In this document: in pieces, positions 2,172 to 23,052 of the stretch
Position numbering within the stretch: the first letter of the stretch is position 1
How the letters are laid out: each line of letters begins with the position of its first letter
Origin: Thermoanaerobacterales bacterium
GTDB lineage: Bacteria > Bacillota > Thermosediminibacteria > Koleobacterales > Koleobacteraceae
DNA length: 24,000 nt
Direction: 5' to 3'
Assembly (NCBI GenBank): GCA_012839065.1
Contig: DUOC01000009.1
Coordinates: 3,923 to 27,922, forward strand
Notes under the pieces: generated by a model
Seen by the model: the letters and a program-made list of their open reading frames with translations, nothing else
Told to the model about the DNA's origin: nothing
Databases searched by the model: none
Made by a program: the position numbers and the translations under genes

Positions 2172-2186
2172 ACAAATAACCTCCAG

Positions 2187-3314
2187 TTAAAATCCTCTAA
2201 TCAGTTTCAATTTCATAATTAATGCTTTTACAAAATATTTTATGTGTGAAGAAGAAGTTCCTATAATAAATAATGGTAAAAGTGATGAGAACATTATTGC
2301 AATTATATACCTCATTTTGAAGTTAGTACTATATAATTTACTTACTCCTTTTGCGTCTACAAGAATCGATCCCACTTTTAATCTTACTAGAAATGTGCTA
2401 GACATCCCGTTTCTACCTTTTTCTAAAAAATCTATCATATTAGAATGAGTACCTACGGCAACAATCAAATCCGCACCCTTTTCAAAGGCGAGCAGCATTG
2501 CGATATCTTCGCTAGTCCCCGGAGCAGCGAAAATTTTATAATTTAATCCAAGTTTTTTCACACGTTCAAGCCCGGGAGCTGTACCATCCGGGTATGCATG
2601 GACAATAATTTCAGCACCTGATTTTAAGCATTTATCGCTTATACTGTCCATATCTCCAATTATAATATTTGGTTTAAGACCAAACTCCATTATTGCATCG
2701 CCACCACCATCTACCCCAATTAAAATAGGTTTTTTTTCTTGTATATAAGACTTTATTGTATATAAGTCTTTTTTATAATCCCTGCCTCTCACAACAATTA
2801 AAGCATGTTTATTTTTGAATGATATATTTGTTTCAGGGATGTTTAAATCCCATAAAAAAGTGTACTTCTCCTTCTTTATATATTCTACTGTATTTTCAAT
2901 AAACTTTTCCATTTCTATATTCATATTCCTCTTTGCATCTTCATACCTTGATTTATATAATTTAAAATCTAACATATTACCTTCACTAATAACTTTTTTA
3001 TTTGATAATATTATTCTCTTATTTTTAATGTAAACTACATCACCATCTTTTAGTTTATTAAATATATCTTTATCATTGGTTTCTATAAGAAAAACACCTG
3101 CTTTTAAAAGAATATATGGACCTAATGTTGGGTATTTGCCCGAAATAAACTTTTTTGTATTTATCACAGCCTTAACTTTTTTTGCTAATAAGGATTCTGC
3201 AGCAACTTCATCAAGATCTTGATGATCAATAATTCCTATATCACCAGGCTTTAATCTGTTGATTAATTTTTTCGTTTTTTTATCTAACTTTACTTTTCCG
3301 CTGATCAAATTCAT
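2187..3314 (-). CDS. steA: SteA-like protein: thiamine-pyrophosphokinase-like catalytic fold plus a C-terminal membrane anchor
   Basis: 375-aa ORF with a GDMDS motif (IIIGDMDSISDK), GVDGGGD, and a hydrophobic C-terminal tail (YIIAIMFSSLLPLFIIG). The family assignment is from memory of the SteA/TPK_catalytic+TPPK_C architecture. Confidence 0.6.
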   Translation of the reverse strand: MNLISGKVKLDKKTKKLINRLKPGDIGIIDHQDLDEVAAESLLAKKVKAVINTKKFISGKYPTLGPYILLKAGVFLIETNDKDIFNKLKDGDVVYIKNKRIILSNKKVISEGNMLDFKLYKSRYEDAKRNMNIEMEKFIENTVEYIKKEKYTFLWDLNIPETNISFKNKHALIVVRGRDYKKDLYTIKSYIQEKKPILIGVDGGGDAIMEFGLKPNIIIGDMDSISDKCLKSGAEIIVHAYPDGTAPGLERVKKLGLNYKIFAAPGTSEDIAMLLAFEKGADLIVAVGTHSNMIDFLEKGRNGMSSTFLVRLKVGSILVDAKGVSKLYSTNFKMRYIIAIMFSSLLPLFIIGTSSSHIKYFVKALIMKLKLIRGF

Positions 3315-3390
3315 AGATTATTACCCCGCTATTAATTTATATCTCTATTTATTATTCTTCAGTCTTAATAATTTTATAAAATAGTTAAAA

Positions 3391-3495
3391 TTATAATACT
3401 TGTCCATATGCTTGAATCGTTTTTTTAGATAGATTTTTTGAAGTGCAATATAGAAGGAAGTGATCTATTTGAAATTCAAAATTTGTCAAAAACAA
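3391..3495 (-). pseudogene. remnant of the N-terminus (SAM-like core-binding domain) of a tyrosine recombinase/integrase, 34 codons then a stop
   Basis: My translation is (M)FLTNFEFQIDHFLLYCTSKNLSKKTIQAYGQVL*. GGAGG lies at 3506..3502, 6 nt before TTG 3495..3493. The F-x-x-Y-C-x-S-K-N-L-S-x-K-T-I-x-x-Y pattern is typical of integrase N-termini. The ORF ends after 34 aa and no catalytic domain follows. Confidence 0.4.
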
Positions 3496-3519
3496 AAAAC
3501 ACCTCCTTTCATTGAAATT

Positions 3520-3543
3520 GGTCAAAATCAATCAATTTTAACC
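3520..3543 (-). terminator. weak hairpin downstream of spo0A, a possible terminator
   Basis: On the minus strand GGTTAAAAT-tgattg-ATTTTGACC forms 9 bp including one G-U. The trailing sequence is only modestly U-rich. Confidence 0.25.
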
Positions 3544-3659
3544 ATCCAATAAACTAGAGATGTTTATAACATTAATTTTCTTAAGTTTATAAGTTTACAC
3601 CAGTATACTTTTAAAGAGTTTATAGGCTTTGTATTCTCTGTAACTTTGATATAATTGCT

Positions 3660-4451
3660 TCAACTTACTTTTAGTTCCATCCTTAATTTATCTGCGATCA
3701 AGGCTATAAATTCTGAATTTGTAGGTTTCCCTTTCTGAGAGTGAATTGTGTAACCAAATAGTTCATTTATTGTTTCAACACAACCTCTATTCCAGGCAAT
3801 TTCTATTGCATGTCTAATTGCTCTTTCAACTCTGCTTGGTGTAGTATTGTATTTACGAGCTATATTTGGATATAGTTCTTTTGTAACTGCACCTAATAAA
3901 TCCATATTATTAACAACTAACCCTATAGCCTCCCTTAAGTAAAAATATCCCTTTACATGAGCAGGAACTCCAATCTCATGTATTATATTAGTTATCATTA
4001 CCTCAAGTGATTGATGGTTTTTGGATATCATATTATTCGTAGCTATACTAGTTCTATTATTTAGTACTAAATTATCTTTTTTGTTACATAGCTCTCTAAT
4101 TCTATCAACTAATAGATTCATATCAAACGGTTTAACCATATAATAATCTGCTCCTAAACTTACTGCCCTTTGAGTTATATTATCTTGTCCTACAGCAGAT
4201 AAAACAATTACCTTTGGAAATCCTTTATTCTTTTTTAATTGTTCTAATACACCCAAACCATCAACGTGAGGCATTATTATGTCAAGCACAATTAAATCTA
4301 CTGAATGTTCATTTGCCAAATTTAATACAGCTTGACCATCTAAAGCTTTAGCGACTATTTCAATATCTTCTTGTTGATTTAAAAATTCTTCTAATATATC
4401 ACAGAAATCCTCATTATCATCCGCTATTATTACCTTTATTTTATCTTTCAT
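3660..4451 (-). CDS. spo0A: Spo0A, master sporulation response regulator
   Basis: Receiver domain ([11 protein letters not shown]...[14 protein letters not shown]) plus the Spo0A-specific C-terminal DNA-binding domain ([19 protein letters not shown]...[18 protein letters not shown]). The track start at 4466 is probably over-extended: the GGGGGGA in ATGGGGGGATTCATTATG serves as an SD for the ATG at 4451. Confidence 0.97.
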
Positions 4452-4486
4452 AATGAATCCCCCCATTTTATTTAATTATTCATACT

Positions 4487-4515
4487 ATTCGACATTGTCT
4501 TTACAATATCCTCCT
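4487..4515 (-). promoter_or_regulatory. candidate sigma-H-type promoter with an overlapping Spo0A box (TGTCGAA) upstream of spo0A
   Basis: The minus strand reads AGGAGGATAT-tgtaaagacaa-TGTCGAAT. AGGA (4512..4509) and GAAT (4490..4487) are separated by 18 nt, which fits the AGGAwww-N12-rnnGAAT spacing. A perfect 0A box, TGTCGAA, lies at 4494..4488, about 40 nt before the ATG. Confidence 0.45.
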
Positions 4516-4539
4516 ATTATTCCATATTTTATTATTTTT

Positions 4540-5850
4540 TTAAAAGCAGGTAATAGCTTTTTCGCAATTTTTATCTATTTCTGTAATTGGATTCAACATC
4601 CATTCTGCAAAAATTCCATATCCTTTTGCTGGAGAATTAACAAAAACATGTGTTACAGCACCTATTAGCTTTCCCTTTTGGATAATTGGACTTCCACTCA
4701 TACCCTGAATTATACCGCCGGTTTGATCTAATAATCTTGGATCTGTTACTTTTATTATCATTCCCTTTCCATCGGGTTTGTTTTGGTTAAATATTTTAAT
4801 AATTTCTATCCTAAATTTCTCTATTTTATCATCCTGAATTACGGTTAATATCTCAGCTGGGCCTTCTTGTATTTCTTCAATCATTGCGATGGGTATTGTA
4901 TCATAAAAAGGATTCATTAATTTTTGATTTAGTTTCCCATAAATTCCAAATGTTGTGTTAGTCATAATCTTTCCTATTATATCTGATTCTTGAATAAAAA
5001 CTCCTTTTTTTTCACCTGGGCGATTTTTTTCGCCTTTTTCTATAGATGTAACTTTTGCTTTAATTATTTCTCCATCACTTATTTCAATAGGTTTACCAGT
5101 ATCAATATCTGTTATTATATGTCCTAATGCTGCAAAAAACATATTATTAGGGTCATAAAAAGTAAGAGTACCTACCCCAGCAGCTACATCTCTAACCCAT
5201 AAGCCTAATTGATATAATTTATCATGATTGTTAAAAATTGGTTCGACAGAGAGCGTTAATATCTTTGAATCTCTATTTAACTTTATTTCAATATTAGAAC
5301 CTTTTGCTTTATTGACAAGTTCTGTCATATGATCGACATCTAGTATCTTTTCATTATTGATTTCCATTAAAACATCCCCAATAAGAATACCAGCTTTTTT
5401 CCCTGGGCTATATCTTCTATTATTACAGTCTGTTATATTTGAGTAACCTACTACTATAAGACCATTGGATCTTAGCTTTACACCTATAGAGTGACCACCC
5501 GGCACTACATTTTTTTCAGGTACCACATCTACTTTTATCTTTTTAATAGGTAAAAATCCTATGTTAAATTCCAGGTTTGTTGTGCCTTGATCTAAAAATT
5601 TTAATGAAATTGGTTTTGATAAATCTACTATGAAATTATCTTGGTTTAATGTACTACCATTAATAAGGAAACCAAAATTATCAGATTTGACTTTTGCATT
5701 AATGGGGAAATTGAACTCTAAAACTTTTTCATCTCCTTGAATTACTGTAAATTCATCGGGTAAATTGGAAATTTTATCATAATAAAAAAGGAATGCAAAA
5801 ATTATTAAGATAAAAACTAATAATAGATGCATTTTTGTCTTTTTACGCAA
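4540..5850 (-). CDS. spoIVB: SpoIVB signalling serine peptidase (S55) with a PDZ domain
   Basis: N-terminal TM segment, PDZ-like region (GILIGDVLMEINNEKI) and catalytic-serine region GGIIQGMSGSPII. The preferred start is TTG 5850, with GGAAGGTGG 7 nt upstream. The track start at 5886 is also TTG but has no SD. Confidence 0.93.
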   Translation of the reverse strand: MRKKTKMHLLLVFILIIFAFLFYYDKISNLPDEFTVIQGDEKVLEFNFPINAKVKSDNFGFLINGSTLNQDNFIVDLSKPISLKFLDQGTTNLEFNIGFLPIKKIKVDVVPEKNVVPGGHSIGVKLRSNGLIVVGYSNITDCNNRRYSPGKKAGILIGDVLMEINNEKILDVDHMTELVNKAKGSNIEIKLNRDSKILTLSVEPIFNNHDKLYQLGLWVRDVAAGVGTLTFYDPNNMFFAALGHIITDIDTGKPIEISDGEIIKAKVTSIEKGEKNRPGEKKGVFIQESDIIGKIMTNTTFGIYGKLNQKLMNPFYDTIPIAMIEEIQEGPAEILTVIQDDKIEKFRIEIIKIFNQNKPDGKGMIIKVTDPRLLDQTGGIIQGMSGSPIIQKGKLIGAVTHVFVNSPAKGYGIFAEWMLNPITEIDKNCEKAITCF

Positions 5851-5902
5851 AGGAATTCCACCTTCCTTTTGTTTGATTAGATTCAATTTTTAGTCTAACA
5901 TT

Positions 5903-5931
5903 TAAAATAACCTATTTATTTTATTTTATAC
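5903..5931 (-). promoter_or_regulatory. possible forespore-type (sigma-F/G-like) promoter for spoIVB
   Basis: On the minus strand, GTATA (5931..5927), a 14-nt spacer, then GGTTATTTTA (5912..5903). This only partially resembles my recollection of the GYATA / GGnnAnAnTw pattern. Confidence 0.2.
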
Positions 5932-5946
5932 TGTAAAGGAAAGCAG

Positions 5947-5974
5947 AAAAAAGCCGGTATCATTTGACCCGGCT
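5947..5974 (-). terminator. rho-independent terminator after recN
   Basis: On the minus strand AGCCGG-11 nt loop-CCGGCT is followed by TTTTTT. The stem overlaps the recN TAG stop codon. Confidence 0.7.
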
Positions 5975-7724
5975 ATTTATTGCGATTTTTTATTTTTTTA
6001 TTTAATGTTTTAGCATTTTCTATCATCTGTTTTGCATGATCAAGCGTTATATCTGTAATATTTGAACCTTCTAGCATTCTGGCTAGTTCAGTTATCCTTT
6101 GGCTTTCTTCTAGTCTTTTTATTTTGGTGTTTGTAAATTTATCTGTAGTAATTTTTTCTATATAGAAATGATTATCAGCCATACAAGCTATTTGAGGAAG
6201 GTGAGTTATACAAATTGTTTGATGACTTTTTGAAATATATAATAATTTTTCTGCTACTATTTGAGCAGTCGCTCCACTTATGCCTGAATCAATTTCATCA
6301 AAAATTAGAGTTGGGATACTGTCTACCCTGGCTAATATTGATTTAAGCGCTAACATTATCCTAGACATTTCACCACCAGATATTATTTTTGATAGTGGCT
6401 TTAGTGGTTCCCCTGGATTTGTTGATATTAAAAATTCTACTATATCGATTCCTTTATTCGTTACTGAAATATATTGTTCACCTATTTTTATACCAGCTTT
6501 ATTATCTTCTTGATGTTCAAAGGCAATACTGAATCTGGTTTTACCCATCCCTAATTCATATAATTCTTTAGTAATTTCTCTTTCAAGGATCTTAGCATTT
6601 GTTTTTCTTTTTTCGGATAAACTTAACGATAAATCTACTAACTCCTTTTCTGTTTTGTTCTTTTGATTTATCAATTTATCAATGTTTTCTTTTATATTTA
6701 CAAGTTCATCTATTTCTTTTTTAGCTTTTTTATAATAATCCAGTATTTCTTCTGTGCTGCTATACCCATATTTCCTTTTTAATTGATTTAGATAATTTAA
6801 TCTCGTTTCAATTTCATTTAAACGATCCTGATTAAATACTATAGTATCTCGATATGTTCGTAAATCTGCCGAAATATCTTCAATTTTGAAAAAAATATCT
6901 TTTAATGTGTTTAAAATTTTATCTTGTTTTTGATCTATACTATTTATATTTTCTATTTGTTCTATAGTTTCTGATAATGTGTCATATACTGCTTGTCTAT
7001 CATCATCACCTTGGTATAATAACTGATATGCTGTTGATGCACTTAAAAACAATCTTTCAGAATTTGATAAGATTTTTTTCTCTTGATTAAGTTCTTCTTC
7101 TTCTCCAGGTTTAAGGTTTGCTCTCTCTAATTCGGCTGTTTGAAATTTGAGGAACTCAAGTTTTTGCTCTCTTTCTTGTTCTTTTTCTTTTAATTCTATA
7201 AATTTGTTATGTAAATCTTTATATTGCCTATATGTATATGATAATTTTTGCCTAATTGCTAATAATTCATTACCGCCAAACATATCTAATAGATCAATAT
7301 GTTTATCAGGGTTTAATAGTGATTGATGTTCATGTTGACCATGTATGTCGATAAGGAGTTGTCCAATTTGTCTTATAAGCCCTAGATTAACCGGTTTTGA
7401 GTTTATACGACAAATATTTTTCCCTGTATCCGAAATTTCTCTAGATATAATAATAACATCATCCTCATACTCGATATCATAATCGTTAAGTATCTTTTTA
7501 ACATTTGTATCATTTATGTAGAAGATACCGTATATTTCGGCTTTTTCTCTACCAGTTTTTATATACTCAACAGAAGCACGAGCTCCTAAAAGAAGACTAA
7601 TCGCATCAATTATTATAGATTTTCCAGCACCTGTTTCACCAGTTATAATATTAAGCCCCTCAGTAAATTCCATTTTAATATTGTCAATTATAGTAAAATC
7701 CTTAACATACAATTCAAGGAGCAA
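5973..7724 (-). CDS. recN: DNA repair protein RecN (SMC-like ATPase)
   Basis: 583 aa with N-terminal Walker A GETGAGKS, a long central coiled coil, a C-terminal signature ISGGEMSRIMLALK and Walker B LIFDEIDSG. Confidence 0.95.
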   Translation of the reverse strand: MLLELYVKDFTIIDNIKMEFTEGLNIITGETGAGKSIIIDAISLLLGARASVEYIKTGREKAEIYGIFYINDTNVKKILNDYDIEYEDDVIIISREISDTGKNICRINSKPVNLGLIRQIGQLLIDIHGQHEHQSLLNPDKHIDLLDMFGGNELLAIRQKLSYTYRQYKDLHNKFIELKEKEQEREQKLEFLKFQTAELERANLKPGEEEELNQEKKILSNSERLFLSASTAYQLLYQGDDDRQAVYDTLSETIEQIENINSIDQKQDKILNTLKDIFFKIEDISADLRTYRDTIVFNQDRLNEIETRLNYLNQLKRKYGYSSTEEILDYYKKAKKEIDELVNIKENIDKLINQKNKTEKELVDLSLSLSEKRKTNAKILEREITKELYELGMGKTRFSIAFEHQEDNKAGIKIGEQYISVTNKGIDIVEFLISTNPGEPLKPLSKIISGGEMSRIMLALKSILARVDSIPTLIFDEIDSGISGATAQIVAEKLLYISKSHQTICITHLPQIACMADNHFYIEKITTDKFTNTKIKRLEESQRITELARMLEGSNITDITLDHAKQMIENAKTLNKKIKNRNK

Positions 7725-9192: not shown

Positions 9193-10014
9193 TTATTTTT
9201 TTATTAAATTTTCATGTGCTATTTTTATAGTTTCTTTAATTATTTTGTCTTTATTTATTCCTGTAAAATTAGTGTTTGATTTTATAAGATGAATCAAATA
9301 TTCTATATTCCCTTTAGGGCCTATAATCGGAGAATAAGTTATGTCATTAAAACTTATATCGTTTTCTTCGCAGAATTGAATGATAGAATTAACTACTTCG
9401 TAATGAGTATTGGGCGATTTGACAACTCCTTTTTTACCCACTTTTTGCCTTTCGGTTTCAAATTGTGGCTTTATAAGTGCTATAATTTCACCTTGTTCTA
9501 TAAGGAGTTTTATTACTGCAGGTATTACTTTTTTGAGTGAAATAAATGAAACATCTATTGTAGCTATATCACATTTTTCACCTATATCATCTAAGTTTAT
9601 ATATCTAATATTTTTTCTTTCAATTGCTACAACTCTGGGGTCATTTCTTAGTTTCCAATCTAACTGTCCATATCCTACATCAATAGCATATACCTTTTTT
9701 GCCCCAAAATTTAACAAACAATGTGTAAATCCGCCTGTAGAAGCTCCTACATCAATTATGACTTTATTTTTAACATTTATATTAAAAACATTTAGTGCTT
9801 TTTCTAACTTTAAACCACCTCTGCTTACGTACGGACAAGAATCGCCTTTTATTTCTATAGCACTTTCAATGTCAACTTCAGTTCCGGGTTTGTCAACTAG
9901 TTTTTTATCTACTAATATCAAGCCAGACATTATTGCTCTTTTAGCTTTTTCTCTACTTTCATATAATCCCCTTGTTACAAGGAGACAATCAAGCCTTTGC
10001 TTCTTTGAATTCAA
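9193..10014 (-). CDS. tlyA: TlyA-family rRNA 2'-O-methyltransferase (S4 domain plus FtsJ-like methyltransferase domain)
   Basis: RLDCLLVTRGLYESREKAKRAIMSG is S4-like and VIIDVGASTGGFTHCLL is a SAM-binding motif. The track start is GTG 10023. I prefer TTG 10014, which has GGGGTG 6 nt upstream. With either start the gene overlaps the 3' end of dxs. Confidence 0.9.
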   Translation of the reverse strand: MNSKKQRLDCLLVTRGLYESREKAKRAIMSGLILVDKKLVDKPGTEVDIESAIEIKGDSCPYVSRGGLKLEKALNVFNINVKNKVIIDVGASTGGFTHCLLNFGAKKVYAIDVGYGQLDWKLRNDPRVVAIERKNIRYINLDDIGEKCDIATIDVSFISLKKVIPAVIKLLIEQGEIIALIKPQFETERQKVGKKGVVKSPNTHYEVVNSIIQFCEENDISFNDITYSPIIGPKGNIEYLIHLIKSNTNFTGINKDKIIKETIKIAHENLIKK

Positions 10015-11911
10015 AGCTTTCACCCCGTAATAATCTTAAAACACTTTCAACAATTTTTTCGGGTGTTATACCCACTATTTTTAAAAGCTGTTCCCGTGGC
10101 CCATGCTTTATGAAAGCATCCGGAATCCCTAGCCTAACCAATTTTATATCATAAAGTTTTTCCTGTTCAAAAAATTCCAGCACGGCAGATCCAAAACCGC
10201 CCTGCAGTGCATTTTCCTCCACAGTTACAAAATAATTCGAATTTTTATATATTTCCTTTAAAAGCTTACTGTCCAGCGGCTTCAAAAATCTCAAATTAGC
10301 AACACACGCATTTATACCATAATTCATTTTCAAAATATCAGATGCCACAAGCGAGGGATAAACTGTAGAACCAATAGATAATATATTAACATCTTCACCT
10401 TTTCTTAAAATTTCGCCTTTTCCTATTTCGATTTGTACCCATTCTTTTTTATTAATATCATTGATTCCAATCCCAGTGCCTCGAGGATACCTAATTGCTA
10501 CGGGGTTTGATATATTGATCGCAGTTTTAAGTGCACTGCTTAGCTCATTCTCATCTTTGGGAGCCATTAAAACGATATTTGGGATATGTCTAAGATAAGA
10601 CATATCAAAAACACCATGGTGAGTTTCTCCATCTTCTCCTACTATTCCAGCCCTGTCTATAGCAAAAATAACATGTAAGTCTTGAAGACATACATCATGG
10701 AGAATCTGGTCATATGCTCTCTGCAAAAAAGTAGAATAAATTGCTACCACTGGTATAAATCCTTCGGCTGCCATAGCTGCTGCCATCGTAACTGCATTTT
10801 GCTCAGCTATACCAACATCGAAAAATCTATCGGGAAATTTTTGTGAAAATTTTTTTAGCCCTGTACCATCAGACATTGCAGCTGTAACAGCAATAATTTT
10901 TTCGTTTTCTGCACCTAAAGCACATAAGGTTTCCCCAAAAACTTCGGAATACGAAAGAAACTTTGTTTTATTTAAGGATCTACCTGTTTTTTTATTAAAC
11001 GGTCCTACTCCATGATAATAATCGGGATTCCTTTCAGCGTATGGATAACCTTTGCCTTTCTTAGTTATAACATGAATTAGTTTAGGCCCACTGCTTTTTT
11101 TAGCCATTTCTAATGTAGAAATCATCTGACTTATATTATGACCATCTATAGGTCCAAAATACTTAAAGCCTAGTTCTTCAAATAGTATCCCCGGAACGAG
11201 CAAATACTTCAAACCATCTTTTGCTCTTTCGGCAGTTTTAGCCAGTTTTTTGCCTATTGCAGGTATATTTTTTAAAATGGTTTCTATATCAGTTTTTAGT
11301 TTCGAATAGGTTGGATCAATCCTTAGACGCGTTAAATACGATGATAAAGCCCCTATATTATGGGAAATTGACATTTCATTATCATTTAATATCACAATTA
11401 AATTGCTTTTAATATGACCTGCATAATTTAATGCTTCAAAAGACATGCCACCTGTTAATGCTCCATCTCCAATTACAGCTATTACTTCATTTTTTTCGCC
11501 TTTTAGATCTCTTGCTTGTGCAAAACCCACAGCTGCTGATATTGAAGTACTGCTATGACCCGTGTTAAACACATCATGTACACTTTCTGTACGCTTTGGA
11601 AAGCCGCTAATTCCATCATACTTACGAAGCGTTCTAAATTGTTTGAACCTACCAGTTATTAATTTATGGACATAAGACTGATGCCCAACATCCCATATTA
11701 TTTTATCTTCTGGGCTTGAGAATACCTTATGCAATGCAATTGTTAATTCAACTACCCCTAAATTTGAAGCCAAATGCCCCCCGTTAGCCGAAACTGTATC
11801 TATTATATACTGACGAATTTCTTGAGATAAAATTTCAAGCTCTGTATAACTTAATCTTTTTATATCTTCAGGGCTATTAACACATTTTATTAAATTATAT
11901 TCTATACTCAT
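9989..11911 (-). CDS. dxs: 1-deoxy-D-xylulose-5-phosphate synthase
   Basis: 640 aa with typical DXS motifs: GGHLASNLGVVELT, GHSSTSISAAVG and GDGALTGGMSFEALN (TPP binding). Confidence 0.97.
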   Translation of the reverse strand: MSIEYNLIKCVNSPEDIKRLSYTELEILSQEIRQYIIDTVSANGGHLASNLGVVELTIALHKVFSSPEDKIIWDVGHQSYVHKLITGRFKQFRTLRKYDGISGFPKRTESVHDVFNTGHSSTSISAAVGFAQARDLKGEKNEVIAVIGDGALTGGMSFEALNYAGHIKSNLIVILNDNEMSISHNIGALSSYLTRLRIDPTYSKLKTDIETILKNIPAIGKKLAKTAERAKDGLKYLLVPGILFEELGFKYFGPIDGHNISQMISTLEMAKKSSGPKLIHVITKKGKGYPYAERNPDYYHGVGPFNKKTGRSLNKTKFLSYSEVFGETLCALGAENEKIIAVTAAMSDGTGLKKFSQKFPDRFFDVGIAEQNAVTMAAAMAAEGFIPVVAIYSTFLQRAYDQILHDVCLQDLHVIFAIDRAGIVGEDGETHHGVFDMSYLRHIPNIVLMAPKDENELSSALKTAINISNPVAIRYPRGTGIGINDINKKEWVQIEIGKGEILRKGEDVNILSIGSTVYPSLVASDILKMNYGINACVANLRFLKPLDSKLLKEIYKNSNYFVTVEENALQGGFGSAVLEFFEQEKLYDIKLVRLGIPDAFIKHGPREQLLKIVGITPEKIVESVLRLLRGESFEFKEAKA

Positions 11912-12505
11912 TTATTTACGCGCCTTTCCGTTGTTTTGCAGTAGGTTTAATCCCAATTTTTCCTTTAAAAAATATATTAAAATACCGACTTTTAATACAA
12001 TTTGCTTTGATTTTGATATCGCAAAAGTCTTGCCAATAGCCTTTCCACCAACCATTATAGTTGCTATAATACTCGTCATCAATATAGTAAAGATATAATC
12101 ATTATTTTTAATGTCATAGAACCTTAATATTCTATATACTAATGTTGCTCCGGCAGCACCGCTTAAAGTTCCTGCTATATCTCCAATCACATCATTACAA
12201 AAATTTGATACAATATCTGCATTTCTAATTAAAATGACTGCTTCTTTTGATCCTTTTTGTTTATTTGCAGACATAGCATGGAAAGGAGGTTCATCTGCCG
12301 CGGTTACAGCTACTCCTATAATATCAAACAAAATACCAATAAAAATAATTATTATTAAAATTAAAAAAGCAAATACAACATTTATATTTTTTATCAAATT
12401 CTCTGAAATAAAACTCACAATTAACGTAATGCAAAAAGTCCAAATAAACGCCTTCTTAATCCAGGCCTTTTTATCGTTTTTGCTTTTTACTCTTGATCGT
12501 GCCAA
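11912..12505 (-). CDS. oapA: small polytopic membrane protein (~4 hydrophobic segments, strongly basic N-terminus); candidate OapA, the OLE-associated protein A
   Basis: 197 aa. TTG start 12505..12503 with GGAGG (12517..12513) 7 nt upstream. Its stop codon abuts the dxs ATG. N-terminus is MARSRVKSKNDKKAWIKK. A D-x-x-x-D motif (NDVIGDIAG) matches what I recall as the conserved OapA motif. It lies directly 3' of the structured RNA and 5' of dxs, which is the published OapA position. Confidence 0.7.
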   Translation of the reverse strand: MARSRVKSKNDKKAWIKKAFIWTFCITLIVSFISENLIKNINVVFAFLILIIIIFIGILFDIIGVAVTAADEPPFHAMSANKQKGSKEAVILIRNADIVSNFCNDVIGDIAGTLSGAAGATLVYRILRFYDIKNNDYIFTILMTSIIATIMVGGKAIGKTFAISKSKQIVLKVGILIYFLKEKLGLNLLQNNGKARK

Positions 12506-12529
12506 AAAAAAACCTCCAGAAGATCAATT

Positions 12530-13140
12530 GCAAGGGGATAGATGGTAACATACAAGGTTAATCTTGCGGCTTAAGGTCTAGCAGGATTTCCCAAGCAGTC
12601 ACCTGTTTGTTACCAAACAGGCGGTTTCCCTTTATGTCTGCCTCTGCAAAGTTGCCAAAATGCAGAGCTAGATCACCACTTAGACCACACTGTAATCCCT
12701 TATATGTCTCCACAAAGAGCAGTCTAGGAGCTTTCCTCAACAGTATGATTATTTCCCTAGCCTCTTTTGCAACCAGATTTTCAAAAGGCATAGACTCACT
12801 ATTCAATGGCCGTTGAATAGAAAAGTTTTAAAACCTCTATCCCATCCTGATCACTCAAGGCAGGCTACGCTACACCCAGCACAGCGTCTATACCGGAATG
12901 TAGGTTTACTCATGCAGACAAATCCTTTTGTTGCATAAGTCTCCATGAAAGTGGGGTCAACGCCTACATGCCTTTGCAGATCGCCCCATCTTCCTTAACT
13001 CCCAGCACTGACCCCCGACTGGGCGTCGGCAGCCAACACCAGAAGCTTCATCGATGTGCCCTATGACGGATTTTTAGCCCCGCCTTCAGGAAATAAAATA
13101 CTGACTAGAATACTGCACCATCTATCCACAATTTTTCATT
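12530..13140 (-). ncRNA. ole: large structured noncoding RNA, most likely OLE (ornate, large, extremophilic) RNA; ends approximate
   Basis: This is the only long noncoding gap in the gene train. By hand count, G+C is 34/60 at 12841-12900 and 35/60 at 12961-13020, against clearly AT-rich flanks. A perfect 11-bp closing helix pairs 13127..13117 (GGATAGATGGT) with 12546..12536 (ACCATCTATCC). Internal hairpins lie at 12909-12939 (13 bp, AGGA loop), 12799-12820 (8 bp), 12642-12667 (7 bp) and 12602-12621 (7 bp), and a further helix pairs 13009-13015 with 12953-12959. The size (~600 nt) and the ispA...oapA-dxs context match OLE. Confidence 0.8.
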
Positions 13141-13150
13141 ATTATAGCTT

Positions 13151-13178
13151 ATTATAGCATATTCTTAACTTTATTCAA
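13151..13178 (-). promoter_or_regulatory. sigma-A-type promoter directly upstream of the structured RNA
   Basis: On the minus strand, TTGAAT (13178..13173), a 16-nt spacer, then TGcTATAAT (extended -10; TATAAT at 13156..13151). It begins just after the stop codon of the upstream gene. The predicted TSS near 13144 is about 17 nt before the closing helix. Confidence 0.5.
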
Positions 13179-13179
13179 G

Positions 13180-13635
13180 TCATATGATAATATTAGCAAT
13201 TAAAATGCCCCATAAGCCTCCAACTAAGACTTCTATAGGGGTGTGACCGATCAGTTCTTTAAGTTTATCTTCTTTAATTATTCTTTTTTGCTGAAACAAT
13301 TCACTAATAATTATATTAATTATTTCAGCGTGTCTCCCTGCAGACCTTCTGACACCTGCTGCGTCATACATTACAATTAAAGCTAATACAACAGCCAATG
13401 CAGTAATTGGTGAATGCCAGCCCTCGATTTTACCTATAGCAGTTGCAATAGATGTTACCATCGCTGAGTGAGAACTTGGCATACCTCCAGCAGTTATTAA
13501 CATTTTTATATCAAATCTTTTTGTTAGCAGTATCATAACCAATATTTTCATTATCTGTGCTGTAAGCCAAGCAAAAAGTGCTGTAACTAATATTGGATTT
13601 TTAAGAAGCATAATTAATTCGCGCAATATTTTCAT
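13180..13635 (-). CDS. divergent PAP2-family membrane protein (DUF212; acid phosphatase / vanadium haloperoxidase-related, YuiD-like)
   Basis: 151 aa with the GGMPSSHSA motif and YDAAGVRRxxGxHA, which I recognise as the DUF212 signature. It has several hydrophobic helices. Confidence 0.85.
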   Translation of the reverse strand: MKILRELIMLLKNPILVTALFAWLTAQIMKILVMILLTKRFDIKMLITAGGMPSSHSAMVTSIATAIGKIEGWHSPITALAVVLALIVMYDAAGVRRSAGRHAEIINIIISELFQQKRIIKEDKLKELIGHTPIEVLVGGLWGILIANIII

Positions 13636-13643
13636 TCCTTATT

Positions 13644-14528
13644 TTAGAATTCACGAGTAAGTAAATAATCTGGCAGCAAGTTAAAAAACGTTCCTTTTTC
13701 TCCAAAACTGCCTGCAATTTCTTTTGCTTCATCTGCAAGTTTATGTGCAATACTATAAGTTTTATCAATACCACATAATCTCGGATATGTAGCTTTTTTG
13801 TTTTTTATATCACTGCCAACAGGCTTGCCAATTTTTTTAATGTCACCCTCCAAGTCTAATAAATCATCAGTTATTTGAAATAACAGCCCTAACTTTTCTG
13901 CGTATTTTGTAAGCATATTTAATTGTTCCTCTGACGCATCAAAATATATTGCCCCTGCTCTTATTGAGGCATTTATTAATGCAGCTGTTTTGTTTATATG
14001 TATGTATTCTAATGTGCTAATATTTATTTGTTTCCCTTCAGATTCTAAATCAACTACCTGTCCCCCAATCATGCCTTTTGTACCACAAGACCTGGCAAGT
14101 TCATTTATTATTTGAAGTATTTTATGGGAATTTACTTTATTTTGTTCATTAGAAATAATTTCAAATGCCATTGTCAGCAAAGCATCACCTGCAAGAATAG
14201 CAATTTCTTCTCCAAAAACCTTATGGTTTGTTAGTTTCCCTCTCCTATAATTATCATTGTCCAAAGCCGGTAAGTCATCATGTATTAGAGAGTAGGTATG
14301 TATTAGTTCTACTCCACAAGCTATTGGTATTACATCCTGAAAAGAGCCTCCTACAGTTTCTGCGCTTGCCATTACCAAAATAGGACGTATTCTTTTACCT
14401 CCCGAAAAAATACTATACCTTATCGATTTATGTATTATGTTTGGATATTCACTATCATATGGAAGCAATTTATCTAACGACTCATCAATAATAGCTTTTC
14501 TTTCTGATAAATATTGACGCAAATTCAT
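13644..14528 (-). CDS. ispA: farnesyl/geranyl diphosphate synthase (short-chain polyprenyl synthase)
   Basis: First Asp-rich motif is IHDDLPALDNDNYRRG and the second is FQITDDLLD. The track start at 14594 overlaps xseB by 59 nt. The internal Met (MNLRQYL..., codon 23, start 14528) lies just after the xseB stop and downstream of GGAGGA. Confidence 0.93.
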   Translation of the reverse strand: MNLRQYLSERKAIIDESLDKLLPYDSEYPNIIHKSIRYSIFSGGKRIRPILVMASAETVGGSFQDVIPIACGVELIHTYSLIHDDLPALDNDNYRRGKLTNHKVFGEEIAILAGDALLTMAFEIISNEQNKVNSHKILQIINELARSCGTKGMIGGQVVDLESEGKQINISTLEYIHINKTAALINASIRAGAIYFDASEEQLNMLTKYAEKLGLLFQITDDLLDLEGDIKKIGKPVGSDIKNKKATYPRLCGIDKTYSIAHKLADEAKEIAGSFGEKGTFFNLLPDYLLTREF

Positions 14529-14535
14529 GTTAAAA

Positions 14536-14775
14536 TTATTCCTCCTCGATGTACTCAAATTCTTCCAATAAAAATTCCCCTTTATCTTTTTCAATTAATA
14601 AACTGATTTTACCTTCAATTTCATTTATTTTGTTTGTACAGAATTGTGCAAGCTTTACACCTTTTTCGAATTTCTTTAAGGCTTCTTCCATTGGCAAATC
14701 ACCCTTTTCAAGTAATTCTACTATTTGTTCGAGTTGTTGTAAAGCTGATTCAAAAGTAATATCTTCTTTATCCAT
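14536..14775 (-). CDS. xseB: exodeoxyribonuclease VII small subunit
   Basis: 79 aa, helical and acidic. The FESALQQLEQIVELLEKGDLPMEEALKKFEKG pattern is typical of XseB, and it immediately follows xseA. Confidence 0.93.
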   Translation of the reverse strand: MDKEDITFESALQQLEQIVELLEKGDLPMEEALKKFEKGVKLAQFCTNKINEIEGKISLLIEKDKGEFLLEEFEYIEEE

Positions 14776-17805: not shown

Positions 17806-18336
17806 TTAATTATGCTCAGTAATCGTAATTTTATCTAGCGATAAATTTGTACTCTTTGAAACAATATCACATATTTGTGCAACTTGTTTATCATCTAAAC
17901 TTTTTGTTTTAACTATCACAGAAGCGAAATCATCCGATAAAACAATTATTGAATCATCATATCCTTTTCCTTTTATCATATTCTCAATGATTAATTCTTT
18001 TTCTATACTGCGGATAATCTTTTGTAAGTTTTTCTGTGCTTCGTAACGCATATCTTTATCAGAGTTTGGATCGTGTATTATTTCCTTTAAGATCTCCATC
18101 TCTTTGCTCCTTAACCTGTCCCGTTTTAGTTTATATTCGATAAAAAAATCGTAACTTTTTTCATTTGTATAATTTTGATCATTTTCTAAAACTAAATTTA
18201 GTTGATCTAAAATCTCTTTTTCCTGAAGGGTTATATCTTGAAATGTTGTCTGATCTTGATTCAAATAAAAGTAAACAGTTACGGCTAAAATACCTATCAA
18301 AACAAATATTATAACGGTACGTTTTCTAATAACCAT
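17806..18336 (-). CDS. spoIIIAH: stage III sporulation protein AH
   Basis: 176 aa with an N-terminal TM anchor and a polar extracytoplasmic domain. It is the last gene of a complete spoIIIA operon. The assignment is mainly positional, with only weak sequence recall. Confidence 0.85.
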   Translation of the reverse strand: MVIRKRTVIIFVLIGILAVTVYFYLNQDQTTFQDITLQEKEILDQLNLVLENDQNYTNEKSYDFFIEYKLKRDRLRSKEMEILKEIIHDPNSDKDMRYEAQKNLQKIIRSIEKELIIENMIKGKGYDDSIIVLSDDFASVIVKTKSLDDKQVAQICDIVSKSTNLSLDKITITEHN

Positions 18337-18350
18337 TATTCCACCCCTCT

Positions 18351-18962
18351 TTATTTCATAGGTAAAACTTTTATTTTATAAGCAGGAATATTCAAAACAG
18401 TTTCAGCAGCATTTGTAAGCATCTCCTTAACAATTGAATTATCTGCTCCTTCTGCTATAATAATAACTCCTTCAATCTGAGGGCTAATTTTCCTTATAAC
18501 CACAGGTTTTTCATGGCCACTTTGCTCCCTAATTACAACTACCTGTTTGCTTGTGATAAGTTCTGTAACATACCTAATACCGCCTTGTGTATCTTCTTCT
18601 TCCGTAGTTTTTTTTGTCTCTTGTATATTATAAGCAGGCTCGATTTCTTCTGTCGATTTAAGCGTTAACATTACTTCTACTTTTCCTGCACCATTGATAT
18701 GGTTTAAAATTTCTTTCAATTGTCGTTCAATTATAGCTTTTGTTTCTTCTTTATAAATTGTATCAGACATATTTTCTGCTGTATTAATATGCAATCCCTC
18801 ATTTTTTTCTTTTTTAGGATTGCTAAGAAAAAAGCTGCTTGAAAGTAGTATAATTATACCAATAAGTAAATATGTGAAAATTTTGTTAATATTTTTCCCT
18901 TGCGAACTGCTTATTTTTTTAATAAAATCACTATATTTTCTTAACAGGCTCATATTATTCAT
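18351..18962 (-). CDS. spoIIIAG: stage III sporulation protein AG (ring-forming)
   Basis: 203 aa with an N-terminal TM helix. The C-terminal ring-building region is VEVMLTL...PQIEGVIIIAEGADNSIVKEML...KIKVLPMK. The ORF overlaps spoIIIAF by 8 nt. Confidence 0.9.
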   Translation of the reverse strand: MNNMSLLRKYSDFIKKISSSQGKNINKIFTYLLIGIIILLSSSFFLSNPKKEKNEGLHINTAENMSDTIYKEETKAIIERQLKEILNHINGAGKVEVMLTLKSTEEIEPAYNIQETKKTTEEEDTQGGIRYVTELITSKQVVVIREQSGHEKPVVIRKISPQIEGVIIIAEGADNSIVKEMLTNAAETVLNIPAYKIKVLPMK

Positions 18963-19590
18963 CCTTTCTTACTTCAATATATATCATTTCTTGAGAAATA
19001 TTATAGTTTTCAGACAAAATATTTTTTATCTTTTCTGATAGTTCACTAGTAACAATTTGTTTTTTGTCGTAAGCTTGTGTTGACGAGTTAACTTTAATTT
19101 CTATAGGTTTAATTTGAGATGCTTTTTCATCAGTTTTATTTTGAGATTCTAGAATTATATCTATCTTCTTTGGTTTACCAAATGTTTCTTCTTCTACGTC
19201 ATCAAATACCTCAACATTTACAGATACTTGAGTGTCTTTAGATTCAATGATATCCAATAAATGGTTTTCGATCTGATGAGCCAATGCAGATTTATAACGA
19301 GTTAATGCTTGTTCGCTATATTTTTTCTGCATTTCCCTTCCTGTAGTAATTATTTCTTGTATCTCTATATCTTTTCTTATTTCTAATATTTTTTCATTGA
19401 AATCATTAAAGTTAAAATCATATTTAAAAATTGTTAGAAAAGGCGTTATAATTGTCAGTATTACAAGGAATCCCATTACTACTTTTATATATCTTTTTAG
19501 ATCGCTACTAGGCATAAACATTTCTAATATAAATGAAAAGAATATTAAGAGTATTATATTCCTAATCCAGTCCCCTATTATTTGATACAA
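18955..19590 (-). CDS. spoIIIAF: stage III sporulation protein AF
   Basis: 211 aa with two N-terminal TM helices. TTG start with GGAAGGGGTGA upstream. Assigned by its position between AE and AG. Confidence 0.85.
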   Translation of the reverse strand: MYQIIGDWIRNIILLIFFSFILEMFMPSSDLKRYIKVVMGFLVILTIITPFLTIFKYDFNFNDFNEKILEIRKDIEIQEIITTGREMQKKYSEQALTRYKSALAHQIENHLLDIIESKDTQVSVNVEVFDDVEEETFGKPKKIDIILESQNKTDEKASQIKPIEIKVNSSTQAYDKKQIVTSELSEKIKNILSENYNISQEMIYIEVRKDE

Positions 19591-19604
19591 TTAATCACCC
19601 CTTC

Positions 19605-20786
19605 CTAACGCATCATTACTATCATATTTCCTGCCCCTACTATAATGGTTATTACTATAAATAACATCATTGCAACTGAAGCAACACAAACAAATATTAA
19701 AGTTAGGGAGTTTCCTATATCATTTAAACAACTTACAACCTTGTTTTCGCCAAGTGGTTCAACTATAGCACTTGTTATTTTAAATATAAATATTAAAGAA
19801 ATCATTTTAATCATTGGGGAGATACAGATTATAAAAATAATTATAGTTCCAAATAGCCCTATAGCGCTCTTTAATAGGATTGAGCAACCAACTATTGTAT
19901 CAAGAGCATCAACAAATATACCGCCGACTATTGGAAAAAAATTTTTTGTTGCAAACTTGACAGTTCTTATTGATATCCCATCTGCAATTGCTGCCCCTGC
20001 TCCTTGAATTATCACTGCGCCAAGAAAAATACTAAGAAAAATCCCTAATAATCCTATACATATTTCTTTTAACAAACTGGACATACGTGTAACCTTTAAT
20101 GTATCTGTTATGTTATTTACAATTTGAAGAACAGCTGATAAAAAAACTAATGGTAGAACAGCATCCTTAATAAGTGTACCAACACCGCTTACAGTCATAA
20201 GTACAAAAGGATGCAAAATTGCTGCTGAAGTGTATCCTCCACTGGCAACAAGAAGACTTAATAATATTGGTAAAACAGAATGCAAAAAATCAACCATGGT
20301 ATTTATAGTTTCTCTCCCCAAATTTAGTGCAATTGTAAAACTATTAATTATTATCCCGATTAAAATTAAGTAACAAATGCCGTATGCCAGCTTACTCACA
20401 TTATCTCGTTGAAAGGCAGACTGAATATTCTGTAATAGAGCCAATATAACACACAAAATTATCAACTGCCCAAGTATTTGAAAATTAACTATGACTTCTT
20501 TAAAAAAATAGCGAATTATACCTTTCAATAATGAATTAAAAGAGTAATCGAAGTTTCCGCTTTTTATAAAAGTAAACAAATTGTTAATTGTTAGTTCGGG
20601 AATATATTCATATATATCTTTATTCATAGATTTTAGCATTTCTTCTATTGGACTGATGTCTAATTCTTTAAGCTGTTCATCAAGGAGTCCATTTTCACCT
20701 ACCTCATCTAACGCATATGCTTGAGCAGGTACTAAAAAAAGCATGAATAAAAAAACTATAATTATTATCTCATTCTTGTTTCCCAT
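19605..20786 (-). CDS. spoIIIAE: stage III sporulation protein AE (polytopic membrane protein)
   Basis: 393 aa with a signal-like N-terminus (FLVPAQAYA) and multiple TM helices. Size and position are typical of SpoIIIAE. Confidence 0.92.
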   Translation of the reverse strand: MGNKNEIIIIVFLFMLFLVPAQAYALDEVGENGLLDEQLKELDISPIEEMLKSMNKDIYEYIPELTINNLFTFIKSGNFDYSFNSLLKGIIRYFFKEVIVNFQILGQLIILCVILALLQNIQSAFQRDNVSKLAYGICYLILIGIIINSFTIALNLGRETINTMVDFLHSVLPILLSLLVASGGYTSAAILHPFVLMTVSGVGTLIKDAVLPLVFLSAVLQIVNNITDTLKVTRMSSLLKEICIGLLGIFLSIFLGAVIIQGAGAAIADGISIRTVKFATKNFFPIVGGIFVDALDTIVGCSILLKSAIGLFGTIIIFIICISPMIKMISLIFIFKITSAIVEPLGENKVVSCLNDIGNSLTLIFVCVASVAMMLFIVITIIVGAGNMIVMMR

Positions 20787-20800
20787 TTTTTATCACCTAT

Positions 20801-21187
20801 TTAAGGTACTATCTTTAAAATCATTTCAAGCAAAGCAATAATTATTGGAATAGATAAAACCATTATGACAATTTTACCGGCAAACTCTATTTTTGAGGCA
20901 ATTGATTCTGATCCTGAATCATGGCAAATCTGTGCTCCAAATTCTGTAATATATGCTATGCCGATTATTCGAAGTATAGTTGAAAAATATACGAGATCTA
21001 TATTTGCTCTTCTTGACAAACTTTCTAATATCGATATTACAGACAGTATCTTGTTTATCATTATAATAAATATCATAATGCCTACAATTATTGAAACTTG
21101 TACAGCTATTTCTGGACGTTCTTCTTTTAGGATGACAACTAAAATTGCAGCTACTACCCCTATGCCTACTATGTTTAAAATTTCCAA
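20801..21187 (-). CDS. spoIIIAD: stage III sporulation protein AD
   Basis: 128 aa, four TM segments. TTG start with AGAGGTG 7 nt upstream. Confidence 0.9.
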   Translation of the reverse strand: MEILNIVGIGVVAAILVVILKEERPEIAVQVSIIVGIMIFIIMINKILSVISILESLSRRANIDLVYFSTILRIIGIAYITEFGAQICHDSGSESIASKIEFAGKIVIMVLSIPIIIALLEMILKIVP

Positions 21188-21203
21188 TTAATAACACCTC
21201 TTG

Positions 21204-21401
21204 TCAATAAAAATTAAACATAGTTTTTACACTGTCAAAAAGTTTACCAATCAATTGTATGACTACTAAAAGTACAATAACTACACCAACAAGAGTGATC
21301 ATTTGTGCTTGTTCTTCCCTGCCTGATTGAATTAGCACTTTGTTAAGAATAGAAATAAGTATTCCTAACCCGGCTATTTTAAATATAAGATCTACATCCA
21401 T
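21204..21401 (-). CDS. spoIIIAC: stage III sporulation protein AC
   Basis: The track ORF (89 aa, start 21473) overlaps spoIIIAB by 55 nt. The internal ATG at 21401 has AAAGGAGCC upstream and gives a 65-aa two-TM protein (MDVDLIFKIAGLGILISILNKVL...), the usual SpoIIIAC size. Confidence 0.9.
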   Translation of the reverse strand: MDVDLIFKIAGLGILISILNKVLIQSGREEQAQMITLVGVVIVLLVVIQLIGKLFDSVKTMFNFY

Positions 21402-21418
21402 AACAATGGCTCCTTTCT

Positions 21419-21940
21419 TTAAAATATTATCAGAACAATAGATATCCCAGTTAGAACTCCTATATATCTCCATATTTTCTCGTTTTTCCTCCGAATTTCT
21501 TCCGCTTCTTCTTCTTGTTTTTTTAATTCTGATAATGTAAATTTTATTTTTTTTAATTGGTTTTCTTTATCTGTCTCACCTAAGTAATGTCCTAATGATA
21601 GCAATATTTTTTTATCGCTTGTATTAAGGGCAGAATTTTTATAGTATTTATTTACGGCTTTTTCCCAACATTCACCTGCAGTATAGCCTTGCTGCTTATC
21701 CAAAATATCAGCGGTCATCTTAAACAACAGATTGATTTTTTTGTCGCATTTTTCTGATATGGTCTTTAAAGCTTCCGGTAGAGGTGTTGATAAATACAGT
21801 ATTTCAGTTTCCAGCATCTGAAGGGACATCTGTAAACTTTTAAGTTGTTTTGGCCTGTCTCTGTAATAATCAGCAATTAAGAAACCAATATATGAAGAAG
21901 AGCTAATAACAATTATTACTCCTATAATTTTGAAAAGCAT
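21419..21940 (-). CDS. spoIIIAB: stage III sporulation protein AB
   Basis: 173 aa with TM helices at the N- and C-termini and a helical cytoplasmic domain. It is the second gene of the operon. Confidence 0.88.
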   Translation of the reverse strand: MLFKIIGVIIVISSSSYIGFLIADYYRDRPKQLKSLQMSLQMLETEILYLSTPLPEALKTISEKCDKKINLLFKMTADILDKQQGYTAGECWEKAVNKYYKNSALNTSDKKILLSLGHYLGETDKENQLKKIKFTLSELKKQEEEAEEIRRKNEKIWRYIGVLTGISIVLIIF

Positions 21941-21953
21941 TTAAAAACCCCCT

Positions 21954-22979
21954 TTACCGCAATATATTTAAATTTTTACCATTTATTACTTGTTCAATGG
22001 TTCCCGGACCATTATTACGACTTAAAAAGATTATTACTTCAAAGAATTTTTTAGCTAAAATATTTCTTATCACCGGTCTTTCCTGAATATCTTTGATATT
22101 TGATCCATGTACAGTTGTAATAATACTCACCCCCGCATTAATTGCTTCTTCAATCGCTAATGCGTCATCATTTTTACCTATTTCATCTGTAGCAATAACA
22201 TTAGGAGCCATTGAACGAAGTAAAATAATTATTCCTTCCCCTTTGGGACATGAATCTAATATATCTGTCCTAATCCCAAGATTATTTTTACAGATTCCAT
22301 TATAGATGCCTGCCAATTCCGAACGCTCATCTACCACACCTATATTTACTCCTTTAAACCCCTTGGAGGGTATACCATTACTTAATTGTCTTATTATATC
22401 TCTTAACATTGTAGTTTTACCGCAATTTGGAGGAGAAACTATCAATGTATTAAAAACCCTTCCTGTTATTGGGTCAATAATGTGCTTAATTACTTTGTTA
22501 GCTGCCCCTATTACTTCTCTGCTTATACGTATATTTAAACTTGTAATATCTTTTATTGTTTTGATTGATCCTTGTTCTAATACTGCTTTTCCTGTAAAAC
22601 CGACCCTGTGCCCTCCCTTAATTGTAATATAACCGCTTCTCATCTCTTCTTCTAATGCGTACAGTGAGCTGGCTGAAATAAGTGTTAAGGTTTTCTGTAT
22701 ATCTTCTTTAGTCACTATGTACCCCTTGTCGGGTATTGATGTAACCTTCCCATTTGGTTCAACAAAATAATCAAATTGGTTTCCTGCAATAATTAATGGT
22801 CTATTTGCTCTTAATCTTATTTCTTCAAGTATTTCTAAAATATCTGTTTTTACAAATTTTAGTATATTTCTTATGTTAAGAGACAAAAACGGAAATATCT
22901 CAGTATCAAATAGCTCGTATATTTGATATCTTTGACTAGAAGAAACTTTTGAGTTATGCTCGTCTTTAATTATTTTCAA
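21954..22979 (-). CDS. spoIIIAA: stage III sporulation protein AA (secretion-type AAA+ ATPase)
   Basis: Walker A is SPPNCGKTT and Walker B is VIATDEIG. The track start is GTG 22997. The GGAGG at 22991..22987 lies 7 nt before TTG 22979, which I prefer as the start. Confidence 0.92.
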   Translation of the reverse strand: MKIIKDEHNSKVSSSQRYQIYELFDTEIFPFLSLNIRNILKFVKTDILEILEEIRLRANRPLIIAGNQFDYFVEPNGKVTSIPDKGYIVTKEDIQKTLTLISASSLYALEEEMRSGYITIKGGHRVGFTGKAVLEQGSIKTIKDITSLNIRISREVIGAANKVIKHIIDPITGRVFNTLIVSPPNCGKTTMLRDIIRQLSNGIPSKGFKGVNIGVVDERSELAGIYNGICKNNLGIRTDILDSCPKGEGIIILLRSMAPNVIATDEIGKNDDALAIEEAINAGVSIITTVHGSNIKDIQERPVIRNILAKKFFEVIIFLSRNNGPGTIEQVINGKNLNILR

Positions 22980-23052
22980 TCCTTGTCCTCCTCTCACTAA
23001 TATAATAATTATTTCGCAAAATAAATATTATGACTGAAATAATTTAACAATT

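Follow-up and report, generated by a model that had tools for sequence, protein, structure and literature searches.

An oapA ortholog between the OLE RNA gene and dxs in a Thermoanaerobacterales bacterium

The closest described system is the OLE ribonucleoprotein of Halalkalibacterium halodurans, in which the membrane protein OapA binds the OLE RNA cooperatively, with at least two proteins per RNA, and localises it to the membrane (PMC12265935, PMC7936274). OapA is needed for the function of the ribonucleoprotein under ethanol, cold, Mg2+ and carbon-source stress (PMC12265935, PMC7936274, PMC9723947, PMC10898510). The protein carries a D-x-x-x-D motif (PMC11332333, PMC9723947, PMC7936274). Its two aspartates are replaced in PM1 (D100A/D104A), a dominant-negative allele (PMC9723947), and the PM1 residues have been described as "two strictly conserved aspartate residues" (PMC7936274). 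Fernando and Breaker reported a weak relationship of H. halodurans OapA to CNNM, with CorB (7M1U) as the top structural match, but with four helices against three and with a DxxxD that is absent from CNNM domains (PMC11332333). OapA has accordingly been described as a distant CNNM homolog and a putative divalent-ion transporter (PMC11332333, PMC12265935). The idea that its CNNM-like core is a divalent-cation pathway, in which the RNA replaces the CBS and CorC domains, is a hypothesis in the field (PMC11332333, PMC12265935). Across Bacillota, OapA and OLE are near-completely mutually inclusive, and the presence of OLE correlates with that of sporulation genes (PMC11332333).

Here, we analysed a stretch of 24,000 nucleotides from a Thermoanaerobacterales bacterium (hereafter the window), in which a first-pass annotation, made from the sequence alone, had singled out a small membrane protein between an RNA and dxs as a candidate OapA. 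We consider it very likely that the gene is an oapA ortholog and that its membrane protein partners the OLE RNA encoded immediately upstream. The features on which this reading draws are collected in Table 1.

The oapA frame and its genomic neighbourhood

Does the frame encode a protein, and where does this protein start? A spurious or mis-started frame in AT-rich DNA would be compatible with the non-ATG start (TTG) and, for the mis-start, with the longer N termini annotated in some database homologs (P0004 and representatives of 230 to 336 aa). Yet the TTG at 12505 is the first possible start, because an in-frame TGA lies 18 nt upstream (12526..12524), and it is the sole one before Met78; it is also preceded by an ideally spaced GGAGG. 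The protein is kept full length from Trp15 to about residue 190 across thousands of homologs, and independent gene calls on four contigs agree on the same 197-aa product. The probability that the frame is spurious or mis-started is practically negligible: 11912..12505 on the - strand is more than a chance open frame. At the other end, the sequence reads TAA at 11914..11912, directly adjoined by the ATG of dxs at 11911. The first-pass annotation was right about the 197-aa length, the TTG start and the stop abutting the dxs ATG, all borne out by the sequence and by the Pfam assignment of dxs. It placed the start too close to the RNA: instead of 25-30 nt after the closing helix, the TTG lies 20 nt beyond the Rfam match and about 41 nt beyond the last outer-helix base pair in the structure line of Rfam.

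The gene order on the - strand is efp, spoIIIAA-AH, two asp23, nusB, xseA, xseB, ispA, DUF212, ole, oapA, dxs, a tlyA-like methyltransferase gene, nadK, argR, recN, spoIVB, spo0A and a steA-like gene. This is the classic ole neighbourhood xseA-xseB-ispA-ole-oapA-dxs-tlyA of spore-forming Bacillota. Only 5 of 37 full-length metagenome homolog loci, together with one isolate locus (L088), have the DUF212 gene at this place, between ispA and ole. We read this gene, which encodes a putative lipid-phosphate phosphatase, as a lineage-specific insertion into the isoprenoid/ole cluster. A sequence scan found no terminator-like site on the - strand among ole, oapA and dxs. Since no such site separates the three genes and a promoter-like site lies upstream of ole, their co-transcription is suggested, with the site at 13151..13178 as a possible internal promoter. 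Similarly, the abutting oapA stop and dxs start suggest that the two genes may be translationally coupled.

Three further observations concern this neighbourhood. In the OLE RNA of the window, a hairpin at about 12905..12940 on the - strand (Rfam model positions 204-236) aligns poorly with the consensus: the alignment shows gaps and non-canonical pair marks, and its posterior probability is low. The stem appears to be shortened or diverged. The listed frames of ispA (13644..14594, - strand, 316 aa, TTG) and of the tlyA-like methyltransferase (9193..10023, - strand, 276 aa, GTG) extend into the genes upstream of them. On identical contigs, gene calling yields 294 and 245 aa, respectively, and the longest-frame starts are probably over-extended. 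Finally, sporulation genes flank the ole-oapA cluster on the same strand, with spo0A and spoIVB on one side (3660..5886) and spoIIIAA-AH on the other (17806..22997), in agreement with the published correlation between OLE and sporulation (PMC11332333).

Table 1. Features of the ole-oapA-dxs region, in coordinates of the window
Feature	Position	Strand	Basis or remark
dxs (1-deoxy-D-xylulose-5-phosphate synthase), 640-aa frame	9989..11911	-	Pfam DXP_synthase_N (423 bits), Transket_pyr, Transketolase_C
oapA coding sequence, 197 aa, TTG start, TAA stop	11912..12505	-	List of open reading frames and homology
GGKAIGK (residues 153-159), end of fourth membrane helix; G154, K155, A156 and K159 invariant	12029..12049	-	Alignments
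DVIGD (D105..D109), D-x-x-x-D motif of OapA, equivalent of the PM1 site	12179..12193	-	BLASTP alignment
Loop between membrane helices 2 and 3, with K82, K87 and R94	12224..12262	-	K/R in 97-98% of 65 sequences
FDIIG (residues 60-64), second membrane helix; D61 and G64 invariant	12314..12328	-	Alignments of 33 and 65 sequences
Basic head (residues 1-18), 8 Lys/Arg, ending at invariant Trp15, before the extra membrane helix that CNNM lacks	12452..12505	-	Residue count
Ribosome-binding site GGAGG	12513..12517	-	7 nt before the TTG start; read from the sequence
OLE RNA gene (ole), full length	12526..13137	-	Rfam RF01071, 502.9 bits, E = 5.5e-145, model positions 1-616
Promoter-like site TTGAAT, 16 nt, TG-TATAAT (extended -10)	13151..13178	-	14 nt upstream of the OLE start; consensus scan only
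DUF212 gene (divergent PAP2 family, 151 aa)	13180..13635	-	167 bits; between ispA and ole

Homology to OapA and association with OLE RNA

The reference locus was found by searching the BhOLE primer sequence (PMC9723947 supplement) against genome contigs, which gave one match, in H. halodurans DSM 497. There, OLE (538.6 bits) is followed by a frame of 204 codons and then by dxs. The window protein is 42% identical to this OapA over 193 aa (BLASTP, E = 5e-54). Its D105 and D109 align with D100 and D104 of the H. halodurans DVIGD, when the latter are counted from the second Met of the frame, and D105, G108 and D109 are invariant in alignments of 33 and 65 sequences. No NCBIfam model matches the window protein, and an exact cluster look-up returned neither a name nor an accession for it. 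We met no evidence contradicting the identification in this analysis. Judged by its sequence, the gene is an oapA ortholog and part of a known system, with every defining sequence feature that we looked for being present.

The homology search was among the checks that the first-pass annotation had proposed for its candidate, and it came out in favour of OapA. The two D-[IV]-I-G motifs it had pointed out are also present, FDIIGVAV at residues 60-67 and NDVIGDIAG at residues 104-112. The second contains the D-x-x-x-D, which it had named as the site of dominant-negative OapA mutations, in agreement with the position of PM1 (PMC9723947, PMC7936274).

The family is large. We found 3513 homologs at E<=1e-3 in a collection clustered at 90%, one of them being identical to the window protein and present on 45 contigs. 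With a 65-member profile, we retrieved 1491 representatives at 50% identity, 581 of them at E<=1e-30, and nearly all are 180-215 aa long. Some database homologs are longer, with 230-336 aa (P0145, P0148, P0166, P0219, P0256 and others; also P0004), and their match to OapA begins at residue 45-138. Most likely, these longer N termini are starts over-called into the upstream OLE RNA gene and not true N-terminal domains.

Is the association with OLE general in the family? The first-pass annotation had also proposed surveying this. A scan of metagenomes with the family alignment gave the 80 closest loci, at 39-54% identity and including near-duplicate gut contigs, and OLE was sought in them using an nhmmer profile of the OLE sequences from the window and from H. 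halodurans. It was found directly upstream of the gene, on the same strand, in all 60 loci having at least 700 nt of upstream DNA, with an estimated 0-219 nt between the end of OLE and the start of the protein (one locus, L043, gave no meaningful distance). Among the 20 loci with less than 700 nt upstream, 16 have the 3' part of OLE, and the remaining 4, in which OLE was not found, have less than 190 nt of upstream sequence. Rfam identified full-length OLE in 17 of 17 diverse metagenome loci (379-562 bits), and full-length OLE lies directly upstream of the gene, on the same strand, in the three isolate genomes as well (Keratinibaculum paraultunense, Senegalia massiliensis and Clostridiaceae bacterium 35-E11). 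The neighbourhood is also shared by many loci: of the 37 that exceed 8 kb, with about 4 kb to either side of the gene, 30 have ispA upstream, 34 have dxs downstream and 34 have tlyA downstream. Among relatives of at least 39% identity, the OapA family is tied to OLE RNA, in line with the proposal of the first-pass annotation.

One of these loci is peculiar. The 7.7-kb contig ERZ1034917.2910 (L043) carries two inverted copies of OLE and the oapA homolog, at about 1628..6133. This is probably a palindromic assembly artefact, not a real duplication.

A predicted CNNM-like membrane domain

The AlphaFold2 model, built from the alignment of 65 sequences, has a pLDDT of 81.5 and a pTM of 0.71, and its helices span residues 10-40, 43-69, 73-80, 86-94, 96-129, 136-164 and 166-184. 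Four of them are predicted to be long (10-40, 43-69, 96-129 and 136-164), as expected of OapA in a protein of 197 aa. Hydropathy is clear for long helices 1, 2 and 4 and weak for helix 3, whose best 19-mer reaches a Kyte-Doolittle value of 1.24. When the model was compared with the PDB using Foldseek, the best six matches were CNNM membrane domains, of MtCorB (7M1T/7M1U) and CorC (7CFG/7CFF), with probabilities of 0.96-1.00. These matches are weak by other measures (E values of 2.6e-3 to 0.5, TM scores of 0.42-0.54), and all remaining PDB matches have probabilities below 0.25. At the sequence level, the Pfam CNNM model (PF01595) matches residues 48-180 with 20.8 bits (E = 3.2e-4), against a gathering threshold of 28.4 bits. 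Since this match starts at residue 48, the helix at 10-40 and the basic head would be an N-terminal addition to a CNNM-like core. Pfam found neither CBS nor CorC_HlyC domains, and the chain ends right after the membrane domain. Searches of the PDB sequences with phmmer and with the family profile gave noise only, without reaching CorB or CorC; hence, there is no solved OapA structure and no sequence-level reach to these transporters.

These similarities raise an alternative: the protein could be a stand-alone CNNM/DUF21 exporter of Mg2+, i.e., a truncated relative of MpfA, CorB or CorC that lies beside the RNA by chance and works independently of it. The weak Pfam match and the CorB/CorC fold matches agree with this, as do the labels of some database homologs ("CBS domain containing-hemolysin-like protein" or "CorB"). 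However, the CNNM score stays under the threshold in a chain of 197 aa that has no CBS or CorC_HlyC domain, and the protein has both an extra N-terminal helix and the DxxxD that CNNM domains lack (PMC11332333). Moreover, OLE is adjacent at every locus examined, and the H. halodurans protein, to which it is 42% identical, has been shown experimentally to bind OLE (PMC12265935, citing Block 2011). We regard the stand-alone exporter as very improbable and retain the OapA reading.

The positive-inside rule and the model suggest an N-in topology of this OapA ortholog. The cytoplasmic parts would then be the head, the K82-R94 loop, K155/K159 and the basic C-terminal tail, and helices 2 and 3 would carry D61, D105 and D109 in their inner halves.

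Conserved residues, proposed function and comparison with known systems

The alignment of 65 sequences shows where the family is most constrained. Invariant residues are W15, L50, G57, D61, G64, V67, P74, F75, H76, V99, N101, C103, N104, D105, G108, D109, G112, G154, K155, A156 and K159. Outside the head, two groups of basic positions are conserved: K82, K87 and R94 follow helix 2, and K155 and K159 follow helix 4. OapA is described as being without a conserved proline that typifies CNNM domains; in the alignment, the only invariant proline is P74, in the loop motif PFH. The PFH triplet (P74, F75, H76; 12277..12285), in the loop predicted to be cytoplasmic, and C103 (12197..12199), two residues before the DxxxD, are invariant across all 65 homologs, and we found no discussion of either in the OapA literature that we searched. 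Their conservation makes them possible metal- or RNA-contact residues.

How the protein contacts the RNA is a question on which the first-pass annotation had a specific proposal: the Lys/Arg-rich head, in which it counted 7 basic residues among the first 18, would suit RNA contact at the membrane surface and so tether OLE there. The count is in fact 8, and the head is basic in all 65 homologs (median of 6 K/R, median net charge of +5). It ends at the invariant Trp15, which would be unusual for a disposable signal sequence, and under an N-in topology it would be in the cytoplasm. The basic composition thus stands. The role in RNA contact fares less well, because the length of the head (12-44 residues) and its sequence vary among homologs, which fits the generic charge of a signal-anchor. 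The positive-inside rule predicts a basic composition for any N-in signal-anchor. The basic residues that are conserved by position are elsewhere (K82, K87, R94, K155 and K159). In addition, the N terminus of OapA is called a signal sequence in PMC12265935 and was omitted from the structural modelling there; the same study locates a conserved positive cluster at the cytoplasmic face and does not attribute it to the head. We consider it unlikely that the head is the RNA-contact element. The K82-R94 loop and the lysines after helix 4 seem better candidates, and the loop with K82, K87 and R94 is a candidate for the conserved cytoplasmic positive cluster. For mutagenesis, the family alignment directs attention to K82, K87, R94, K155, K159, H76, C103 and W15 over the variable basic head.

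What becomes of the first helix? We considered a cleaved signal peptide, and it is opposed by two observations: the sequence that follows the first hydrophobic helix (SFIS/ENL) has no small-x-small cleavage motif, and W15, F24, S31 and E35 are conserved. Together, these argue weakly for a retained signal-anchor. One may go further and suppose that the whole N-terminal module, composed of the basic head, Trp15 and the extra helix with its near-invariant F24, S31 and E35, is retained in the mature protein as an OLE-specific adaptor. It could, for example, contact or shield the RNA stem that, under the "integral membrane RNA" model, would span the bilayer, and the unusually basic head of the window ortholog would then be functionally meaningful. 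We see such an adaptor as distinctly doubtful.

The mechanism that we propose follows the one described for H. halodurans. The product would be an integral membrane protein of about 200 aa in an uncultured, spore-forming member of the Bacillota, with an N-terminal signal-anchor helix, then a CNNM-like three-helix membrane domain, and without the CBS-pair and CorC domains of the CNNM/MpfA/CorB Mg2+ transporters. Going by its homology with OapA of H. halodurans, it would dimerise, bind the OLE RNA of the gene immediately upstream, with at least two proteins per RNA, and keep this RNA at or in the cytoplasmic membrane. Such a ribonucleoprotein would aid tolerance of ethanol, cold, excess Mg2+ and poor carbon sources. 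We infer RNA binding, membrane localisation and the stress function by analogy. The invariant intramembrane residues D61, D105 and D109 are most likely the functional core, as a putative divalent-cation site, and the OLE RNA could stand in for the missing CBS and CorC regulatory domains. Ion transport by OapA is a hypothesis only, unproven even for the H. halodurans protein. The link between the acidic motifs and Mg2+, which the first-pass annotation had offered as its own, corresponds to the published view of OapA as a CNNM-like putative divalent-ion transporter (PMC11332333, PMC12265935).

The genome thus carries a complete ole-oapA pair within the canonical isoprenoid and DNA-repair gene cluster. 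The system is already known, and the family, of which the window gene is a further ortholog, has been catalogued in hundreds of species. The window protein shares with H. halodurans OapA (BH2780, WP_010898928.1) its position between ole and dxs, a length of about 200 aa, four long hydrophobic helices with basic termini, and several identical blocks (FD-IGVA, AADE-PFHAM, RNAD, NFCNDVIGDI-G and TVGGKAIGK). The two systems differ in some respects. The head of the window protein is far more basic, with 8 K/R in 18 residues against 3 in MRGAMKSLGKSINW of H. halodurans; its gene starts at TTG, unlike that of H. halodurans; its stop abuts dxs, whereas a gap of 9 nt separates the two genes in H. halodurans; and the interval between ispA and ole holds the DUF212 gene, whereas that of H. 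halodurans has no frame of at least 100 aa. These differences leave the assignment to OapA unchanged.

The comparison with CNNM transporters leads to the same place. The CNNM/DUF21 domain (MpfA, CorB 7M1T/7M1U, CorC 7CFF/7CFG) provides the sole credible structural matches of the window protein, and both these CorB/CorC matches and the sub-threshold CNNM score mirror what has been published for OapA (PMC11332333). Relative to these transporters, the window protein is without the CBS-pair and CorC_HlyC domains, has four membrane helices (the extra one N-terminal) instead of the three of the CNNM domain, and has the DxxxD that CNNM domains are without (PMC11332333). It is paired with an RNA of 600 nt, whereas CNNM transporters have regulatory domains made of protein.
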